64,000 nucleotides of DNA from a virus: UHGV virus genome UHGV-1353844; one strand, written 5' to 3'. The notes beneath the pieces were generated by a model, which saw only the letters and a program-made list of their open reading frames with translations, was not told the DNA's origin and did not search any database. The number at the start of each line of letters is the position of its first letter. Within the stretch, counting starts at the first letter, position 1. The position numbers and the translations under genes were made by a program. This document shows, piece by piece, positions 2,662 through 48,960 of this stretch.

Positions 2662-2862
2662 TCATGACTTCCCTCCAACACACCGCCACTCACATTCGCG
2701 TTGGTGCCAAATTGAACCCCAGGCGAGTCTAATCGCGTACGCTAAGACCACCCATAAAATCGCCGTTATACAAAATAGCACGTACAGAATGGCAACCAGC
2801 ACCATGACGCTAAACCCTAAAACGCTTAGTAACTGACGCCACCAATCAGTTTGCGTAGACAA
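2662..2862 (-). CDS. small membrane protein
   Basis: 66 aa with long hydrophobic stretches; overlaps end of upstream ATPase gene by 17 nt; stop overlaps ATG of a further 36-aa hydrophobic ORF (2555..2665) in ATGA arrangement. Confidence 0.35.
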   Translation of the reverse strand: MSTQTDWWRQLLSVLGFSVMVLVAILYVLFCITAILWVVLAYAIRLAWGSIWHQRECEWRCVGGKS

Positions 2863-5350
2863 TTTTTACTCCTTCGTTGTAAACCGCAGGCAGTGTTACG
2901 CCTTCAGGTTCAATAACACAGTATGCGGCTTCGTTAAGTTTTGAATGAATTTCTGCTTCGTGAGATACCACCAGTAACTGAGAGAACTCACCGGAATTCG
3001 CCAGGGTTTTAATAAACCCGACAAGATTATTTCGGTGTTCCTCATCCATCCCTTCTGACGGTTCATCCAACAGTAGCGGATACTGATGAAGTTTCAGGGC
3101 TTTGTAAGCGGTTAAACGAAACATCAAATTAAAGATGGCCCGCTGCGCTTTCGACCCTTTCCGCACGTCAGGTACCGGTTCAGGATGAGTTTTCAACTGC
3201 ACTGGGAACGTGTAGTCTAAGTCACCGTCGGTTAAGTCACACGGCATGACCCGCATAGGGTAGGTCCAGACTTGTTCGATATATCGCGTCATTAATTCTG
3301 TGATTCTCACGATAGCGTTGTAGAAGTATTTGCGTAATACCCCTTTCTCGGGCGAGAACGCTTGAATCATCAGCTTGTTATTAAATTGCTGCGCTTGTAA
3401 ATCCGATAACTCCTTTTCTAACGCAGTAAGTTGGTTGAGTTCGTTTTCCATCTGACGGTACCTTTCCCGTGCTGTGGTGAACGCATCCAACTTGTTTTCT
3501 CGGGCGTTTAATAACGTTTCGACCACCGTGTTGGTTAATGTTACCTTAACGTCGTTCTCTAAACGCTCAAAAACCGCATTAAAATTGTCTACAGTGACTT
3601 TAAGTTCGTTTAGATAACAAAAGGTATCATTAGCAACTGCGTGCTCTCTACGGCGCTCTGAGAGCGTTTCTGTTGCCTTACCCAAACGTTCCTGCTGGAA
3701 GGCAATTTTCTGCTGTAGTGCACCGTCAACGTTACCTACCGCTGCAACCGCATTTTCCCACTCTTTTTCCGCTTTAGCAAAACGCTGTTTCGTTTCGTGG
3801 TACTCAATTGCGGAATAAAGTTCACGATCGAACTCTGCGCACAGACTGCCAAACTGACTGCGGTTATCCGTAAAGACATTCCGCTCCTGGAGACGTTTAA
3901 AGAACAAACTCAATACCGGGTCTTTCGAGTATGTTAAAACGATTTCCCGTACTTGACGCATGTAATTAACGTCCGACTCTAATTCCGTACGGTCTCGCAA
4001 TACGGAATCAAGTTGAGTCTGTAACGTATTACGTTGCTCCATTTGTCCACGAATGGCTTCTTCCAATTCAGGCAAAGAACGACGGACACCCGGACGGAAT
4101 TTAAATTGACACTGCGGACAATCAACCTCGGCGGTTTCCAAATAGTGATTCCGTTCGTGGTTGAGATTCTGCAATACATTTTCAACACGCTGTAACCTGT
4201 CACGCAACCCAGATGAGTTTTGGTCTAAGGTCAACAGTTTCTCTTCCAGTACGTTCAACCGCTCCGTTGACTTAATAGCATCCAGTGTTGTTCCTAAACG
4301 TTGTCCCCAGACACGCGCATCGGTTGCTGCTTTAAGCTGGTCGATGTTAACGGTCTCTGCAAACAGTTCAGGGAAAAGGTGCTCAGTGTCCCACTGCTTT
4401 ATTAACTCGCGTAGTTTCGCAACCGTGTTTTTTAACCCCTCGTGATTCCGCATCAGGTAATCTTGGCGAGTGGACTCGTCCATCAACAAAGACAAATCTT
4501 TGTTTAGCATGGATAGTTCTGTTTCAGCAGAGACCACCGCTTCACGGGCAGTGGCTTCAATCCGTCGTGCTTCCTCTACTTGTTCTTCCGTAGGTAATCC
4601 GCCACGGTGTTCCAAGATAGCATTAATCGGTGCTTCGATTTTAAGCAATAGCGATTGAATCGTTGCCACCGTAACGTCACGATTCAGACCAGGCAGTTGT
4701 TCAATCTGTTTGTTGAGTTCACGTAAATCCGCTTCTAACGCTTTTAACCGCGTTGCTAATTGCTGACGTTCCTCTTCGTTATCAATTACGCGGGTACGCA
4801 ACTCTGCAATCTTGCGGCTGGTGATTTCAATACCACCGTTTAGCATCGTCAGGTTTTTTCGTAAACGTTGATAAAAACCTAACGCGTAAGTTAAGTCTGA
4901 CGTACTTAAACGGTAGAACCACTTACGGCGCAGTTCCGTTCCTGCATCCGTTAAAAGCACTTCCCCGTTCAGTAACTCTTTAATCTCTTTTGTAATGCCC
5001 GTGATTTCTTCTACGCGAGAGTTATACACTTTCGCATTACCTTGCTCGACGATTTTGGTACCCGTCGTCAGGTTCTCGATATCGCAAACCAATGAGTTGC
5101 CTTTACGTGCAACCTTAAATTTGTAACGATGGTCGTTAACCAAACAGATATTGGTGTAAGAACCCCCGTCACGGAATTCGGATTTCGAAGGTGCGATAGG
5201 TAGAAACACGGACAGTAAGCTGGTCTTACCGCAGCCGTTACCACCGAGGATAATGGTGGTTGGGGAATGGATAGTAAAATCGAAGGTTTCGATTTCGTGT
5301 AACCCCATTCCGGTAAATCCTTTAAGTACAATACGTTCAACTTTTAACAT
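2846..5350 (-). CDS. SMC/Rad50(SbcC)-like ABC ATPase with central coiled coil
   Basis: Walker A GGNGCGKTS near N-terminus; long heptad-rich middle with CPQC (zinc-hook-like); C-terminal signature-like GSKAQRAIF, Walker B LLLDEP and H-loop SHE. Start moved to ATG at 5350 (GGAGG SD 5 nt upstream) rather than GTG at 5368. Confidence 0.6.
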   Translation of the reverse strand: MLKVERIVLKGFTGMGLHEIETFDFTIHSPTTIILGGNGCGKTSLLSVFLPIAPSKSEFRDGGSYTNICLVNDHRYKFKVARKGNSLVCDIENLTTGTKIVEQGNAKVYNSRVEEITGITKEIKELLNGEVLLTDAGTELRRKWFYRLSTSDLTYALGFYQRLRKNLTMLNGGIEITSRKIAELRTRVIDNEEERQQLATRLKALEADLRELNKQIEQLPGLNRDVTVATIQSLLLKIEAPINAILEHRGGLPTEEQVEEARRIEATAREAVVSAETELSMLNKDLSLLMDESTRQDYLMRNHEGLKNTVAKLRELIKQWDTEHLFPELFAETVNIDQLKAATDARVWGQRLGTTLDAIKSTERLNVLEEKLLTLDQNSSGLRDRLQRVENVLQNLNHERNHYLETAEVDCPQCQFKFRPGVRRSLPELEEAIRGQMEQRNTLQTQLDSVLRDRTELESDVNYMRQVREIVLTYSKDPVLSLFFKRLQERNVFTDNRSQFGSLCAEFDRELYSAIEYHETKQRFAKAEKEWENAVAAVGNVDGALQQKIAFQQERLGKATETLSERRREHAVANDTFCYLNELKVTVDNFNAVFERLENDVKVTLTNTVVETLLNARENKLDAFTTARERYRQMENELNQLTALEKELSDLQAQQFNNKLMIQAFSPEKGVLRKYFYNAIVRITELMTRYIEQVWTYPMRVMPCDLTDGDLDYTFPVQLKTHPEPVPDVRKGSKAQRAIFNLMFRLTAYKALKLHQYPLLLDEPSEGMDEEHRNNLVGFIKTLANSGEFSQLLVVSHEAEIHSKLNEAAYCVIEPEGVTLPAVYNEGVKIVYAN

Positions 5351-5380
5351 GTCCACCTCCATATTCACGGAGCGTGGTGT

Positions 5381-9275: not shown

Positions 9276-9305
9276 CGTTAATACTCCTAAAATGGTTTTA
9301 GTTAA

Positions 9306-9347
9306 GTGAGAGCTTTTGTACTCTCACCTAAGTAATATATATCTGAG
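9306..9347. promoter_or_regulatory. conserved AT-rich motif (CTAAGTAATATATATCTGAG) with adjacent 7-bp-stem hairpin; promoter-like
   Basis: One of five copies; sits between a terminator and the SD of the gene starting at 9275. Confidence 0.45.
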
Positions 9348-9365
9348 ATTATTTTTAATGTTAGA

Positions 9366-9397
9366 GAACAAAAAAAAGGTGGGGTTTACACCCCACC
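9366..9397 (-). terminator. rho-independent terminator (minus strand)
   Basis: GGTGGGGT-TTAC-ACCCCACC hairpin followed on minus strand by T8. Confidence 0.65.
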
Positions 9398-9401
9398 GTT
9401 G

Positions 9402-12014: not shown

Positions 12015-12572
12015 TTAAACGTTATAAGCTAAGAACAACAGTTGCTGACCGAGTTTGCGCACTGTATGCCAACCGTGTGCTTTTGCTGTCCCTACCAATG
12101 TTTCCCAGTCATCAATATCACAACCGTCCTTTTTCAGTTCTGTAAGTAGTGCCTCTGCTTCTTTATCTGTTAGTAGTATTCCTGGGTTACTTAACGTACA
12201 CGTAAGTGGGTTAGGGAAATATGCGTAGCGTCTTGCGAAAGTAAAGTTCACGAGATAACGTGCATCTCCTCTGTCTAGAAGGGTAATAACATTGCCACCG
12301 TAGAACGCACTCGTTACTTTCCATCCGGTACCGGAAAACAGATGACGGAATATTTCGGTAAAACTATCTCCGACACTATGATAATTAAGTCGTGAGAAAC
12401 GGCGTTCCCAAACCACAGCATCTCCATCAAATTCTTCAACTTGAAGACCGGTAATCATTGTACCTGGCCGGATAACGTTAGACTGTATAACGCAAGGATA
12501 ATCAAGTTGGTGTTTACCTGCACCCAGCTTAACAAACTCAATAGCTTGTTGTTTCATTTCGATAGTAATCAT
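12015..12572 (-). CDS. hypothetical protein, paralog family with conserved C-terminal module
   Basis: C-terminus ...GWHTVRKLGQQLLFLAYNV; leader CCATTTTAGGAG shared with genes at 9275 and 45066. Confidence 0.5.
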   Translation of the reverse strand: MITIEMKQQAIEFVKLGAGKHQLDYPCVIQSNVIRPGTMITGLQVEEFDGDAVVWERRFSRLNYHSVGDSFTEIFRHLFSGTGWKVTSAFYGGNVITLLDRGDARYLVNFTFARRYAYFPNPLTCTLSNPGILLTDKEAEALLTELKKDGCDIDDWETLVGTAKAHGWHTVRKLGQQLLFLAYNV

Positions 12573-12631
12573 GATATATTCTCCTAAAATGGAATAAGGG
12601 AGTCACTACGTTCCTCTGGGAAGAGTATGTC

Positions 12632-12690
12632 GGTATACTACGTATACCTCCGCTATTTATATCCGTATACATATTGCCCCCTACCCCCTA
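12632..12690. promoter_or_regulatory. operator-like palindrome GGTATAC-TAC-GTATACC plus tandem CCCCCTA repeats in divergent intergenic region
   Basis: 17-bp perfect palindrome at 12632..12648; CGTATAC half-site again at 12664; tandem CCCCCTA x2 at 12677..12690. Confidence 0.35.
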
Positions 12691-12876
12691 CCGGTATCCC
12701 GAGTAGCAGAATAAAGGGACAATCTGTAAATTTTAAGTAATACTATGATTACCGAGGAATAGCCGGGTTGTAGCGTTTGAACAGTACGATGACTTCGTCC
12801 AATCCGCTTTTCTTCTCAGTAGACATTGGTCTGTCTCCTAATCACATGGTAACTCCGTTTCGAAAGAAACGTGCCC

Positions 12877-12931
12877 ATAGGGGCTGAAGTGCGAGTTCAG
12901 CCCCTATTCACTTAAGTAAAATATATCTGAA
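12877..12931. promoter_or_regulatory. conserved AT-rich motif (CTTAAGTAAAATATATCTGAA) with adjacent 12-bp-stem hairpin; promoter-like
   Basis: Hairpin ATAGGGGCTGAA-GTGCGAG-TTCAGCCCCTAT at 12877..12907; motif at 12911..12931, ~27 nt upstream of ATG at 12959. Confidence 0.4.
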
Positions 12932-12958
12932 TTCATTTCCGATCTAAGGAACGACCTA

Positions 12959-13924
12959 ATGGAGAAATCCAGCGTTGACTTTTTCTCGATTGGTATCGTC
13001 GCGGAAGACAAACCCCGTGGTACAGATCGGGTAAAAGTGATACCAATTGAAACCAACTTTGCGAACCCTACCGTTGTACAATCAGTTTCCTCAACCGCTG
13101 AAAAGGTACACGATACTGGGGGTGCTATCGACAACCTAACGATTAAAACCGGTAACACGATTACTGCAAAGTGGTGGAAATTTAATTCCAACCGAATTAA
13201 TTCCCCAGACGTTAAGCGAGAAGATTACGTTATCTTGCTACGTCTAGGGCAAACTGATATTTATTTTTGGATTGATTTGAATTTCGCTAACGTTAAGCGA
13301 TTAGAGGATGCGGTTTACGCGTGGTCGGCTGACCCGGAAAACCAGATGGCGGATGACTTGTCGAACGCGTATGTGTTAAACGTCTCAACGATTGACAAAC
13401 ACGTTACCCTAAGAACAAGTATGGTGAATGGGGAGAAAGCGGCGTGGTTATTCCAATTCGATAACGCTAACGGGTCGTGGCAGTGCGTTGACCATAAAGG
13501 GAATAAGTATTACATTAACTCGGTGGAAGACGATTTAGGTTTTGAGAACGCGATGCTCTCGAAAGTGAACATCAACAAAGAAGATGCGTTCATTTACGCA
13601 AAACGTTCGATTAACCTGGAAACGAAAACGATTAATGAGAAATGCGAAGTTCGGAATACCGAAGCGTCGAAATCGGTTACCTTTAAAACAGAAACCTGGC
13701 TAACTGAAGCTTCTGGTTCAACAACGTATAAAACGCCGAACTTTAAGCAAGAAGGTAACGAAGCGATGTTCACCGGTAATTTGGAAGTTGCTAAGAACTT
13801 CAAATACGGTGGTACGGGCGAAGGCGTGGGTATCTTTACGGTTAAGGATGCGGTGATTTCCGGTATTACCTTCAGCGTACACATCCACGACGGCGTCCAT
13901 GGCCCAACTTCAGGCCCACGCTGA
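12959..13924 (+). CDS. hypothetical protein, possibly virion-associated (C-terminal H-x-H motif)
   Basis: 321 aa; AAGGA SD; first gene of plus-strand structural-like block; C-terminus ...SVHIHDGVHGPTSGPR. Confidence 0.45.
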   Translation: MEKSSVDFFSIGIVAEDKPRGTDRVKVIPIETNFANPTVVQSVSSTAEKVHDTGGAIDNLTIKTGNTITAKWWKFNSNRINSPDVKREDYVILLRLGQTDIYFWIDLNFANVKRLEDAVYAWSADPENQMADDLSNAYVLNVSTIDKHVTLRTSMVNGEKAAWLFQFDNANGSWQCVDHKGNKYYINSVEDDLGFENAMLSKVNINKEDAFIYAKRSINLETKTINEKCEVRNTEASKSVTFKTETWLTEASGSTTYKTPNFKQEGNEAMFTGNLEVAKNFKYGGTGEGVGIFTVKDAVISGITFSVHIHDGVHGPTSGPR

Positions 13925-15643: not shown

Positions 15644-15710
15644 AGCTCTTTTCCTCAATAGATTCAAGTCATAGTATGAACTCGACGCCCACGGACTATA
15701 GGAGTAGATA

Positions 15711-45066: not shown

Positions 45067-45096
45067 GGTATATGCTCCTAAAATGGTTTTAGTTAA

Positions 45097-45138
45097 GTGA
45101 GAGTAGCTGAACTCTCACCTAGGTAATATATATCTGAA
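45097..45138. promoter_or_regulatory. conserved AT-rich motif (CTAGGTAATATATATCTGAA) with adjacent hairpin; promoter-like
   Basis: ~80 bp here nearly identical to 9276..9347, including hairpin and leader CCATTTTAGGAG. Confidence 0.45.
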
Positions 45139-45148
45139 ATTATTTTTA

Positions 45149-48586: not shown

Positions 48587-48711
48587 AATTGTCCCTCTTT
48601 CTTAACGTAGTCTTCAACTAATTTATCAAACACGATTTTTTATCTTCACCCAATTCACCAGAACAGATAATACGGGTGATAGAACTAATCCTCCTTTCGG
48701 CTATAACTAAT

Positions 48712-48757
48712 AGAGCGAATGTAAATTTCGCTCTCCCCTAGGTAATATATATCTGAG
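48712..48757. promoter_or_regulatory. conserved AT-rich motif (CTAGGTAATATATATCTGAG) with adjacent hairpin; promoter-like
   Basis: Immediately follows (minus orientation) the terminator at 48758..48801. Confidence 0.45.
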
Positions 48758-48801
48758 AAAAAATAAAAAAGAAAGGTAGTAGGGGCTTAGCCCCTACTAC
48801 C
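48758..48801 (-). terminator. rho-independent terminator (minus strand)
   Basis: GGTAGTAGGGGC-TTA-GCCCCTACTACC followed on minus strand by TTTCTTTTTTATTTTTT. Confidence 0.65.
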
Positions 48802-48960
48802 TAATATTTATTTCATTCCGTTCTGAGAAAGCGTTGTCCCTGTAAGATGCGTAATAACGATCTTAACAGGCAATAGACGCTAACACCACCACACCAGTGA
48901 TGTCTTCTGAAAGTGTCGGTAGCTCGCGAATGCGTACCTTTCCTACCAGTTCAGCCACTA

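Follow-up and report, generated by a model that had tools for sequence, protein, structure and literature searches.

A putative transcription-control junction between a leftward early gene block and a rightward structural operon in an SPN3US-like jumbo phage

The gap and its flanking genes

The stretch of DNA analysed here, which we call the window, is 64,000 nucleotides long. It contains a divergent intergenic gap of 386 nt, reaching, as the initial annotation had it, from a minus-strand ATG at 12572 to a plus-strand ATG at 12959. Left of the gap lie SbcC-like and hypothetical genes with early-promoter motifs; on the right are baseplate and virion structural genes. The first leftward gene encodes 185 residues and has homologues only in uncultivated contigs of its own clade. 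Its start codon, its ribosome-binding site (AGGAGA) and the shared leader CCATTTTAGGAG occupy 12570–12589 on the minus strand, and the same leader also follows early cassettes at 9276–9401 and 45067–45148. The first rightward gene (12959–13924) begins with the ribosome-binding region TAAGGAAC and an ATG at 12945–12961 on the plus strand. It is a baseplate assembly/hub gene (phrog_3216 baseplate assembly protein, E=5e-112), with 73% amino acid identity to phiEaH2. Judged by identity and synteny, the source phage is an SPN3US/phiEaH2-like jumbo phage.

Searching the region against the phage collection with megablast and blastn gave nothing useful at the DNA level, so relatives were reached through the baseplate protein. 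Sampling by DNA pattern returned mostly chance matches and contigs already known in a viral scan, and only SPN3US- and Asesino-like copies in a metagenome scan. The literature yielded no published transcript data for SPN3US-like relatives, and the promoters described below are predicted from motif, position and conservation.

The gap appears to be composed of two layers, an ancestral junction of about 180 bp and a clade-specific insert of about 195 bp. The ancestral junction maps to 12591–12748 and was found in every SPN3US-like relative examined, being common to relatives from Seoulvirus, Erskinevirus, Machinavirus, Wellingtonvirus and Derbicusvirus. It consists of a conserved core, with AAGGAnGTC boxes, a covarying hairpin and a C5-N2/3-C5 tract in that order, followed by an A-tract and TAnTATGA. 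The insert (12749–12945) sits exactly between TATGA and the baseplate ribosome-binding site, and carries a predicted leftward early promoter, a 5' stem-loop and a 25-aa gene. In alignments of close relatives it is present, allelic or absent. The initial annotation had proposed conservation in related genomes as a check; the region is indeed conserved, and its features lie far beyond chance.

The clade-specific insert

The AT-rich motif, of which one copy had been noted in the gap, lies at 12912–12931 on the minus strand (TTCAGATATATTTTACTTAA) and points left. Four sites of the TAAWATATATCTGA type occur in the window, where 0.45 are expected. All four are intergenic, oriented with and located upstream of minus-strand genes, and two of them (9276–9401 and 48587–48960) are preceded by canonical terminators of the previous gene. 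The segment TCAGATATATWTTAC is invariant even in Phobos and SNUABM_38, in genera as distant as Derbicusvirus. In the phiKZ family, promoters of the virion RNA polymerase start transcription about 10 nt downstream of the motif and do so without new protein synthesis. The minus strand here reads AWTTTCAGATATATATTACCTAGGTGAGA, which, with one mismatch in the junction copy (TTTTAC), matches the early-promoter consensus published for phiKZ, 201phi2-1, OBP and N1M2 (PMC7058600, Table 2). The phiKZ consensus is TATATTAC and that of 201phi2-1 is ...TATATTAC...GTG (PMC7058600); a general rule for such motifs is given in PMC7598289. It is thus very likely, on motif and position, that 12912–12931 is an early promoter of the virion RNA polymerase type.

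Like the early promoters of phiKZ-like phages, these sites are present in multiple copies, head operons of hypothetical genes and are conserved across genera, and the sequences are similar (TTTCAGATATATATTAC..GTG here, TTTCARRYAKATATTAT..GTG and TTTRARR.BTATATTAC...GTG there). They differ in that each copy is directly followed by a strong stem-loop, and in that the promoters of SPN3US-like phages are predicted ones. The mismatched junction copy also lies only 27 nt from a divergent late gene.

The stem-loop next to the junction copy spans 12877–12907 on the minus strand. As first described, its stem is 12 bp long; the pairing is perfect (arms 12877–12888 and 12896–12907) and the loop has 7 nt. 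The predicted energy is −22 kcal/mol with a z-score of about −4 to −5 (−4.1), and three independent compensatory pairs are found in the stem among 7 close relatives. The same promoter-plus-stem-loop layout is repeated at the other three early motifs (z −2.5 to −5.7). The hairpin and the AT-rich motif, listed as separate features in the initial annotation, are better regarded as one unit, a predicted promoter and the 5' stem-loop of its early transcript. The stem-loop is downstream of the promoter and lacks a U-run; it probably shields the 5' end of the early mRNA.

This arrangement is reminiscent of the PeSL (promoter-early stem-loop) cassettes of T4-type phages, which combine a sigma-70-like promoter with a stem-loop that is a terminator (PMC2839356, PMC4122927). 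Both are small repeated promoter-plus-stem-loop units that flank small ORFan genes, and in both the adjoining genes differ from one close relative to the next through swaps, replacements and deletions. Unlike in PeSL cassettes, the promoter here is of a phage-polymerase type, and between 12400 and 13100 we found no sigma-70-like promoter (0 sites). The stem-loop differs as well, being placed at the 5' end of the predicted RNA; a scan of the same interval for intrinsic terminators (GC-rich stem with a U-run within 0–2 nt) gave none on either strand. The locus thus illustrates how small genes are moved by promoter/stem-loop cassettes in a jumbo phage. The mechanism is the one known from T4-type phages, except that the promoter belongs to a phage polymerase.

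The gap had been described as non-coding, which does not hold for a 25-codon open reading frame. This micro-gene runs from 12826 to 12749 on the minus strand (MSTEKKSGLDEVIVLFKRYNPAIPR), has a ribosome-binding site AGGAGA at 12834–12839, and its stop codon abuts TATGA. It is conserved at the protein level, with divergent alleles of the same or nearly the same length in L003 (MFAEQKDGIEEVVRLFRHYSPYLPR) and in L159 and L014. We are confident, though less so than for the early promoter, that the micro-gene is real. Overall it occurs as one of three alleles or is absent, as in L006 and L158, and the 25-aa peptide has no database homologue. Separately, a 244-aa gene is present or absent among relatives at the other edge of the region.

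The ancestral junction

The right end of the ancestral junction carries an A/T-tract box, CTGTAAATTTTAAG, and the motif TACTATGA, together spanning 12724–12748 on the plus strand, with a predicted start at G12747 of TATG. The motif (12741–12748) is orthologous to TAGTATGA and TAATATGA in relatives, and the box to CGTAAAAAAG; box D and the TATGA blocks align among relatives, and RAY retains CGTAAAAAA and TATG. In 13 relatives TATG lies 17–25 nt before the baseplate ATG; in the window it is at −215. TAnTATGA is under-represented in the window, with 3 sites against 7 expected, and all three are located at two divergent junctions preceding structural genes. The late promoter of phiKZ is T-3ATG+1 (PMC7598289), and the junction likewise has TATG upstream of a late, structural gene. 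On this basis 12724–12748 is likely to be a rightward late promoter of the phiKZ type.

The resemblance extends to the position of TATG directly before a virion structural gene, to the scarcity of other conservation near the start and to the retention of TATG among relatives. In contrast to phiKZ, SPN3US-like phages have a conserved A-tract box (CGTAAAAAAG) 12–20 nt upstream, the motif in the window is 211 nt from the gene, and some clade members have lost it. Baseplate genes of L006-type relatives lack any recognisable TATG, so the late-promoter rule is incomplete. It is acknowledged for phiKZ itself that late-promoter specificity needs more than TATG (PMC7598289). We also considered whether box D could be accounted for by a leftward promoter motif, TTTTTAC(G), and rejected this: there are 4 sites against 7 expected, and most are terminator tails.

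The conserved core occupies 12591–12718, about 128 nt, and is bounded by the direct repeat GAATAAGGG (12592–12600) and GAATAAAGG (12709–12717). Box A1, GGAATAAGGGAGTCAC (12591–12606), is the upstream copy of the AAGGAnGTC box. Its counterpart in phiEaH2 is a duplicated box (AATAAGGATGTC, twice), and other lineages have AGGTCAAC. Box A2, AGAGTATGTCGG (12622–12633), is a degenerate copy of AAGGAnGTCGG, a sequence that alignments show intact in most other lineages. A possible resemblance of these boxes to the CsrA site (ARGGAUGU) and to the anti-Shine-Dalgarno sequence was among the ideas set aside; box A2 of the window lacks GGA.

Next comes the hairpin HP1, GGTATAC-TAC-GTATACC (12632–12648), followed by box B, CCTCCG (12647–12652). 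The initial annotation described this sequence, GGTATACTACGTATACC, as a perfect 17-bp palindrome. An inverted repeat is present, but it has only 7-bp arms (12632–12638 and 12642–12648) around a 3-nt spacer, because the central TAC is not self-complementary. The CGTATAC half-site noted at the same time is found at 12664–12670. It is a third copy of GTATAC that could form an alternative pairing with either arm of HP1. The 64 kb contain GTATAC 15 times, three of these within 38 nt at the gap; the CGTATAC copy is invariant within the clade and is not kept outside it. The tandem CCCCCTA, also as first described, is present twice at 12677–12690, forming a C5-TA-C5 tract that reads G5-N2-G5 on the minus strand. 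The window has a single C5-N2-4-C5, where 0.07 are expected, and C5-N2/3-C4/5 is found in 18 of 18 relatives, 75–106 nt before the baseplate ATG.

The core is common to all SPN3US-like relatives examined, and its blocks are kept across 15 lineages and across five genera. Within the clade, 12590–12730 is 93–99% identical, compared with 70–94% at third codon positions of the adjacent baseplate gene. The core evolves as slowly as non-synonymous sites and is under purifying selection. It is almost unchanged in the clade members that have lost the rightward TATGA (L006, L014, L158 and L159). A profile HMM of the core has a single match in the 64-kb window (E=1e-14), and there is one copy per genome (contigs of ~220–240 kb). 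Other Chimalliviridae that share the replication and packaging genes lack it, their junction being 20–75 nt long. With the Rfam 15 covariance models, the window, SPN3US and ChrisDB-like loci gave best scores of 9–17 bits against thresholds of 39–71. Two open reading frames across the core, of 37 aa on the plus strand (12627–12740) and 44 aa on the minus strand (12538–12672), were rejected as coding because the ATG is missing in several lineages (AAGGAAGTC, AAGGAGGTC), the frames of the C-tract differ, and the lengths of indels are not divisible by three. As a cis-element, the core constitutes a family not described before; the promoters are of ordinary kinds.

HP1 shows covariation across the core sequences now available, which represent only about 10 independent lineages. 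Its stem sequence differs in 9 lineages and is Watson-Crick in all of them, G-U pairs being absent throughout; pairing holds in 100% of cells, and 3/5 aligned pairs are changed on both sides. Across relatives the stem varies from 2 to 7 bp and the loop from 3 to 11 nt, between asymmetric flanks (GTCGG and CCTCCG), and in L156 the loop is inverted (TAC to GTA). These variable lengths argue for a nucleic-acid structure rather than an operator of fixed spacing. A palindromic operator of a dimeric protein was rejected, as the arms differ in sequence and length and the spacing is not fixed.

For the core of the window, the folding z-score is −2.2 on the minus strand and −0.2 on the plus strand, and in Machinavirus-like lineages the alifold energy is −25.7 for minus against −12.0 for plus. 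A second hairpin has 1–3 G-U pairs and z-scores of −2.3 to −4.7 on the minus strand only; in L151 a C-to-U change within it leaves a wobble pair if the minus strand is read but a mismatch if the plus strand is read. The G-U pairs in relatives favour a leftward transcript. Taken together, the evidence on strand points both ways: on the minus strand L013, L027 and L029–L032 have z-scores close to zero, HP1 contributes no G-U pair, and an outer GGA/UCC pairing has a G-U on the plus strand in Huxley and SNUABM_6. On the minus strand the G-tract could also pair with the reverse complement of box A in all lineages; the pairs of this long-range helix are almost invariant and show no covariation.

Interpretation of the junction and its core

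On balance we favour, as the more probable reading, that the gap is a transcription-control junction between a leftward early/middle block and a rightward late structural operon in a jumbo phage of the nucleus-forming type. The proposal of a bidirectional control region or class boundary is thus partly supported: leftward early and rightward late motifs are present, but they do not make up a single palindrome-dense, regulator-bound region. The ancestral layer would provide a rightward phiKZ-type late promoter, made of the A-tract box and TAnTATG and starting at G, and a core acting as a non-early leftward promoter and structured 5' leader of the leftward operon. The minus-strand RNA of the core would run from G5-N-G5 through one or two hairpins into a pyrimidine-rich tail. 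The second layer would be an inserted cassette, whose leftward early promoter would be recognised by the virion RNA polymerase, with the stem-loop directly after it. Early leftward transcripts would then cross first the micro-gene and next the core before entering the 185-aa gene. Late transcripts initiated rightward at G12747 would begin with a leader of about 211 nt, antisense to the micro-gene, and only then reach the baseplate gene; a leader of that length is atypical.

The assignment of the core as a non-early leftward promoter or structured leader is tentative and falls somewhat short of probable. Besides the minus-strand folding and G-U pairs, it is supported by the near-unchanged core of the clade members that lost the rightward TATGA, and by SPN3US and phiEaH2, where the nearest leftward early promoter lies 3.5–4 kb downstream of the junction, so that the first ~6 leftward genes must be served from within the 180-bp junction (in SPN3US, NC_027402 at about 161.41–161.59 kb). 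In L012, Phobos and SNUABM_38 the core and the leftward gene are separated by an early cassette, and there the leftward gene does not have to rely on the core alone for a promoter. Candidate leftward TnTG sequences after the G-tracts read TATG in only 4 lineages. A more specific version has a low probability: the core would be a structured RNA of a kind not described before, present in single copy and specific to the clade. Made up of G5-N-G5, one or two hairpins and a pyrimidine tail resembling the 3' end of 16S rRNA, it would act as a leftward leader/attenuator or exist as a separate small RNA, and would tie the expression of the leftward genes to the time at which transcription of virion genes begins. 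A single-stranded-DNA hairpin element for replication initiation is less likely.

Structured and conserved non-coding stretches that separate a promoter from its operon's first gene are found in the same family, as short RNAs from the 5' UTRs of phiKZ and 201phi2-1 (PMC10914365, PMC11512511). The core differs from these in having no homology to them and no terminator motif, and its RNA is a prediction. We rejected the idea that it is a homologue of the tail-gene leader RNA of phiKZ gp182 (201phi2-1 sRNA005), which belongs to a different gene: gp182 is a 664-aa gene 55 nt after gp181, and PA7 gp206, the phiKZ-like orthologue of the baseplate gene, has an upstream gap of 64 nt without the core.

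The phiKZ non-virion RNA polymerase did not transcribe from middle promoters in vitro. The junction offers coordinates for a predicted early promoter and the stem-loop that follows it, for a predicted late promoter, and for the conserved core, which may include a leftward non-early (possibly 'middle') promoter or leader. Because the core is conserved, unique, structured and back-to-back with the first late promoter, it is a good handle on late-promoter specificity.

In a different reading, the core works as DNA, as a regulatory region upstream of the late promoter of the baseplate gene; its repeats would bind a phage factor that times or boosts this first promoter of the structural operon, and the hairpin would be incidental or an extruded cruciform. 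We regard this as unlikely. Outside the clade the distance between core and TATG is almost fixed, with the C-tract 50–55 nt upstream, and in L012 and Phobos the core stays on the baseplate side of the early cassette. The boxes (AAGGAnGTC twice, C5-N2/3-C5) are direct repeats, the strictly Watson-Crick pairs of HP1 are expected if both strands matter, loop inversions are a mark of DNA-level palindrome dynamics, and phiKZ late specificity requires something beyond TATG (PMC7598289). However, the core is intact in clade members without TATGA, and in the window despite the 195-bp insert before the gene. The variable stem and loop geometry of HP1 is unlike a protein site, nothing comparable lies upstream of the second late promoter (15672), and the G-U pairs specific to the minus strand are left unexplained.

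It is improbable that the core is transcribed rightward, whether as a long and structured leader of the baseplate operon or as a small RNA derived from that operon's 5' UTR. Leader RNAs from premature termination are common in phiKZ-like phages (PMC10914365), one of them upstream of a tail gene (PMC11512511), and the plus-strand consensus fold is a bulged hairpin (GGA/UCC plus HP1) with a G-U in two lineages. Nevertheless, there is neither room nor a motif for a promoter left of the core, since the ribosome-binding site of the leftward gene is 5–40 nt away and the flank is not conserved. The plus strand folds no better than shuffled sequences and has no U-tract terminator, and the phiKZ gp182 locus has a different gene and context.

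Still less probable is a cis-acting DNA site, either a replication origin or a packaging (pac) signal, with the repeats as iterons and the hairpin forming in single-stranded DNA. The single copy per genome, the architecture of repeats, hairpin, A-tract and promoter, the Watson-Crick pairing throughout the hairpin and the GATC clusters of several relatives would fit such a site, but GATC is absent from the core of the window, no conserved AT-rich unwinding region is present, and the element is missing in other Chimalliviridae with which the genes for replication and packaging are shared. A turn in the cumulative GC skew near 14–16 kb is uninformative because it coincides with the switch in gene strand.

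Finally, a recombination scar or junk spacer whose repeats and palindromes have no function, for which one could cite the changes in gene content at both edges of the core and the degenerate box A2 of the window, is contradicted by purifying selection comparable to that on non-synonymous sites, by compensatory changes in two hairpins and by blocks kept across five genera, and can be set aside as very improbable.

Architecture of the divergent junction

The gene starting at 12959 encodes a 321-aa baseplate assembly/hub protein (phrog_3216, E=5e-112), 73% identical to that of Erwinia phage phiEaH2/Stratton and 63% to that of Salmonella phage SPN3US. These identities indicate that the window comes from an uncultivated SPN3US-like jumbo phage of the phiKZ-related group. 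Phages of this group encode their own virion and non-virion RNA polymerases. No DNA-level match was found in the phage collection. Close relatives with 93–100% baseplate identity are present in IMG/VR and other assemblies (L003–L006, L014, L156–L159), and we refer to these and the window's phage as the clade. The divergent junction is syntenic among relatives: to its left lie hypothetical genes up to an SbcC-like gene (2846–5368), and to its right the baseplate gene, followed by large virion structural proteins. Homologues of the 185-aa protein, whose leftward gene starts at 12572, occur only in uncultivated ~220-kb contigs and two 'Salmonella Enteritidis' assemblies.

All features of the gap (12573–12958) listed in the initial annotation are present in the sequence, but the stretch it called non-coding contains a real 25-codon gene. 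Chance is excluded by the counts in the window (one C5-N2-4-C5 site versus 0.07 expected; four AT-rich motifs versus 0.45; three of 15 GTATAC sites packed into 38 nt of the gap), together with conservation and covariation. Overall, the gap is a well-explained promoter junction plus one uncharacterised, strongly conserved cis-element. Its interest lies mainly in the exact coordinates it offers for mapping transcripts in the SPN3US-like group, which has no such map.

Two layers make up the gap. The junction measures just ~180 bp in phiEaH2, SPN3US and 11 further lineages, where it aligns to 12591–12748. Its ancestral block order is AGGTCAAC/AAGGAnGTCAC box, AAGGAnGTCGG, hairpin, CCTCCG, 10–30 variable nt, C5-N2/3-C5, ~35 nt, CGTAAAAAAG, TAnTATGA, ribosome-binding site and baseplate start. 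The distance from TATG to the baseplate ATG is 17–25 nt in all 13 lineages outside the clade and 215 nt in the window, L003 and L005. The extra ~195 bp (12749–12945) directly abut TATGA at their left end; among close relatives they occur as three divergent alleles or are mostly missing (L006, L158). Because of this variation and the short spacing outside the clade, the stretch is a clade-specific insertion. An 8-nt direct repeat, TTAAGTAA, flanks it at 12733–12740, within the ancestral A/T box, and at 12912–12919, within the early promoter, and may be the microhomology used for insertion. In close relatives one more gene, of 244 or 278 aa, separates the conserved element from the 185-aa gene, at the equivalent of ~12573 (L156, 1242–1976; L158/L159, 1240–1974; L157, 1140–1976). 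It is absent from the window, and the left edge of the conserved element is therefore also a point of gene gain or loss.

The conserved core and its hairpin

Conservation in related genomes, proposed as a check by the initial annotation, is borne out for the core (12590–12730), which is 93–99% identical among clade members. Since their baseplate genes are 70–94% identical at third codon positions and 95–100% at first and second, the core is constrained like protein-coding non-synonymous sites. Neighbouring genes have been swapped on both sides while the core was kept. A core HMM matches the window once (E=1e-14) and each relative once, and the strict pattern occurs once per 220–240-kb contig. 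The core is absent from more distant relatives (PA7/phiKZ-like phages, RAY, AerS_266 and SXP01), where the junction gap is 20–75 nt and SbcC is directly divergent from the baseplate gene. It therefore arose along with the ~10 additional leftward genes that the SPN3US-like clade carries. It matched no Rfam family, and no description was found in the literature; nor is it the phiKZ/201phi2-1 tail-gene leader sRNA.

At 12632–12648 the core contains a hairpin, HP1. This had been described as a perfect 17-bp palindrome, GGTATACTACGTATACC; it consists of 7-bp arms around a 3-nt spacer lacking self-complementarity. In nine lineages the arm reads GGTATAC, GGTATCC, GGTGAC, GGTACTC, GGTACCC, GGTAGC, GGAG, GGAT or GTCT, yet pairing is always Watson-Crick; every cell (100%) is paired, and both sides have changed in three of five aligned pairs. 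The covariation score, computed for HP1 and the helix between the G-tract and box A (AAGGAnGTC-type) together, was reached by none of 500 shuffles, and slid controls scored far lower. The stem (2–7 bp) and loop (3–11 nt) vary, and the asymmetric flanks GTCGG/CCTCCG are constant. These properties argue against a dimeric protein operator and fit a nucleic-acid hairpin.

Several observations point, though not decisively, to the core belonging to the leftward transcript. In the window the core folds with z = -2.2 on the minus strand versus -0.2 on the plus strand; significant structure is seen on the minus strand in about half of 17 lineages and only rarely on the plus strand; and the Machinavirus-like consensus fold is -25.7 (minus) versus -12.0 kcal/mol (plus). 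A second hairpin of 8–11 bp lies between CCTCCG and the C-tract (z = -2.3 to -4.7); its 1–3 G-U pairs form only in the minus-strand reading, where a substitution in L151 gives a wobble, as opposed to an A-C mismatch in the plus-strand reading. The leftward early promoter closest to the junction is 3.5–4 kb beyond it in SPN3US and phiEaH2, so the first ~six leftward genes there must be transcribed from inside the 180-bp junction. The core also persists in relatives that lack the rightward TATGA. Against the minus strand, HP1 has no G-U pair, an outer GGA/UCC pairing includes a plus-strand G-U in two lineages, several lineages lack excess structure, and an early cassette lies between core and leftward gene in L012 and Phobos. 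Our tentative preference is that the core acts as a non-early leftward promoter with a structured leader. Regulation from upstream at the DNA level is less likely, a rightward leader unlikely, and an ori or pac site the least likely of these readings.

Long C runs occur in intergenic gaps of the window's minus-strand blocks (C10, 49529–49538; C8, 36931–36938, part of a G/C hairpin); runs of at least eight C number four, counting overlapping matches, versus 0.7 expected.

The predicted early promoter cassette

The AT-rich motif, on the minus strand AWTTTCAGATATATATTACCTAGGTGAGA, occurs at 9333, 12917, 45124 and 48743. All copies share one strand and sit in gaps upstream of minus-strand genes; two of the four copies directly follow the preceding gene's canonical terminator. 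It is unchanged in Phobos/SNUABM_38 despite 43–46% baseplate identity. Published predicted early promoters of phiKZ (TATATTAC), 201phi2-1, OBP and N1M2 match it (PMC7058600), and it fits the rule that such a motif is centred near -10 of early genes in every RNAP-encoding jumbo phage (PMC7598289). Because the match reads on the minus strand, the copy at 12912–12931 is a predicted leftward early promoter; with the TATG promoter described below, it adds to published motif families.

A strong stem-loop directly follows all four copies (z = -2.5 to -5.7). The hairpin with a 12-bp stem and the AT-rich motif, listed separately in the initial annotation, are indeed both present, but form one unit. At 12877–12907, pairing is kept through three independent double substitutions among seven close relatives, and no U-run adjoins it on either strand. 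Given these properties and its position directly after the promoter, we read it as a stem-loop at the 5' end of the early mRNA, with a presumed stabilising role.

The micro-gene follows the stem-loop (12826->12749, minus strand, AGGAGA-N7-ATG start). The L003 allele of its 25-aa peptide is ~50% identical and of equal length (MFAEQKDGIEEVVRLFRHYSPYLPR). A third allele, of 26 aa as read off the alignment, is intact in L159; in L014 a single-base change within an A-run (A7) shifts its frame, which points to a pseudogene or an error of assembly. What is conserved is the peptide rather than the DNA, and no database homologue was found. The layout resembles the promoter-early stem-loop (PeSL) cassettes of T4-type phages, where ORFans are shuffled (PMC2839356), but lacks two of their defining features, the sigma-70 promoter and the terminator stem-loop; the cassette's behaviour is PeSL-like by analogy only.

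Cassettes of ~80 nt, almost identical to one another, are found at 9276–9401 and, 36 kb away, at 45067–45148 (also 48587–48960), each with early promoter, GAGAG..CTCTC stem-loop and leader ACTTAACTAAAACCATTTTAGGAG; a canonical terminator precedes the promoter at 9276–9401 and 48587–48960. Their leader CCATTTTAGGAG also precedes the 185-aa gene. In L005 and L157 the loop GTGCGAG of the junction's 5' stem-loop (12889–12895 in the window) is TTCGCAC, roughly its reverse complement, and in L156 the HP1 loop TAC (12639–12641) is GTA. Such flips between near-identical relatives suggest that the palindromes mediate inversion of the spacer in the DNA itself.

The predicted rightward late promoter

TAnTATGA is under-represented in the window (three sites versus seven expected) and occurs at 12741 and as a back-to-back pair at 15669–15679, both divergent junctions ahead of structural genes. 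In phiKZ the late promoter reads T-3ATG+1, and each of the four bases is needed in vitro (PMC7598289). Even Erwinia phage RAY, at 25% baseplate protein identity, retains the A-tract box and TATG. We therefore assign 12724–12748 as the ancestral predicted late promoter of the baseplate operon. Late transcripts of the window's phage would begin with a leader of 211 nt running antisense to the micro-gene. L006-type relatives have a small hairpin in place of TATGA and no other TATG was seen, so either another promoter exists there or the TATG rule is incomplete.

The pair at 15669–15679 forms a palindrome, TCATAGTATGA, with TAnTATGA on both strands. Lying at the next divergent junction, it separates a 492-aa minus-strand gene from a 1440-aa virion structural gene and resembles two overlapping divergent late promoters. 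In distant relatives TATG overlaps or directly precedes the baseplate start (RAY, L162, 612–686: CGTAAAAAATAAC...GCTATGG; Shewanella phage SXP01, L034, 872–892: TCTAGTATGAAC), hinting at very short-leadered or leaderless late transcripts.
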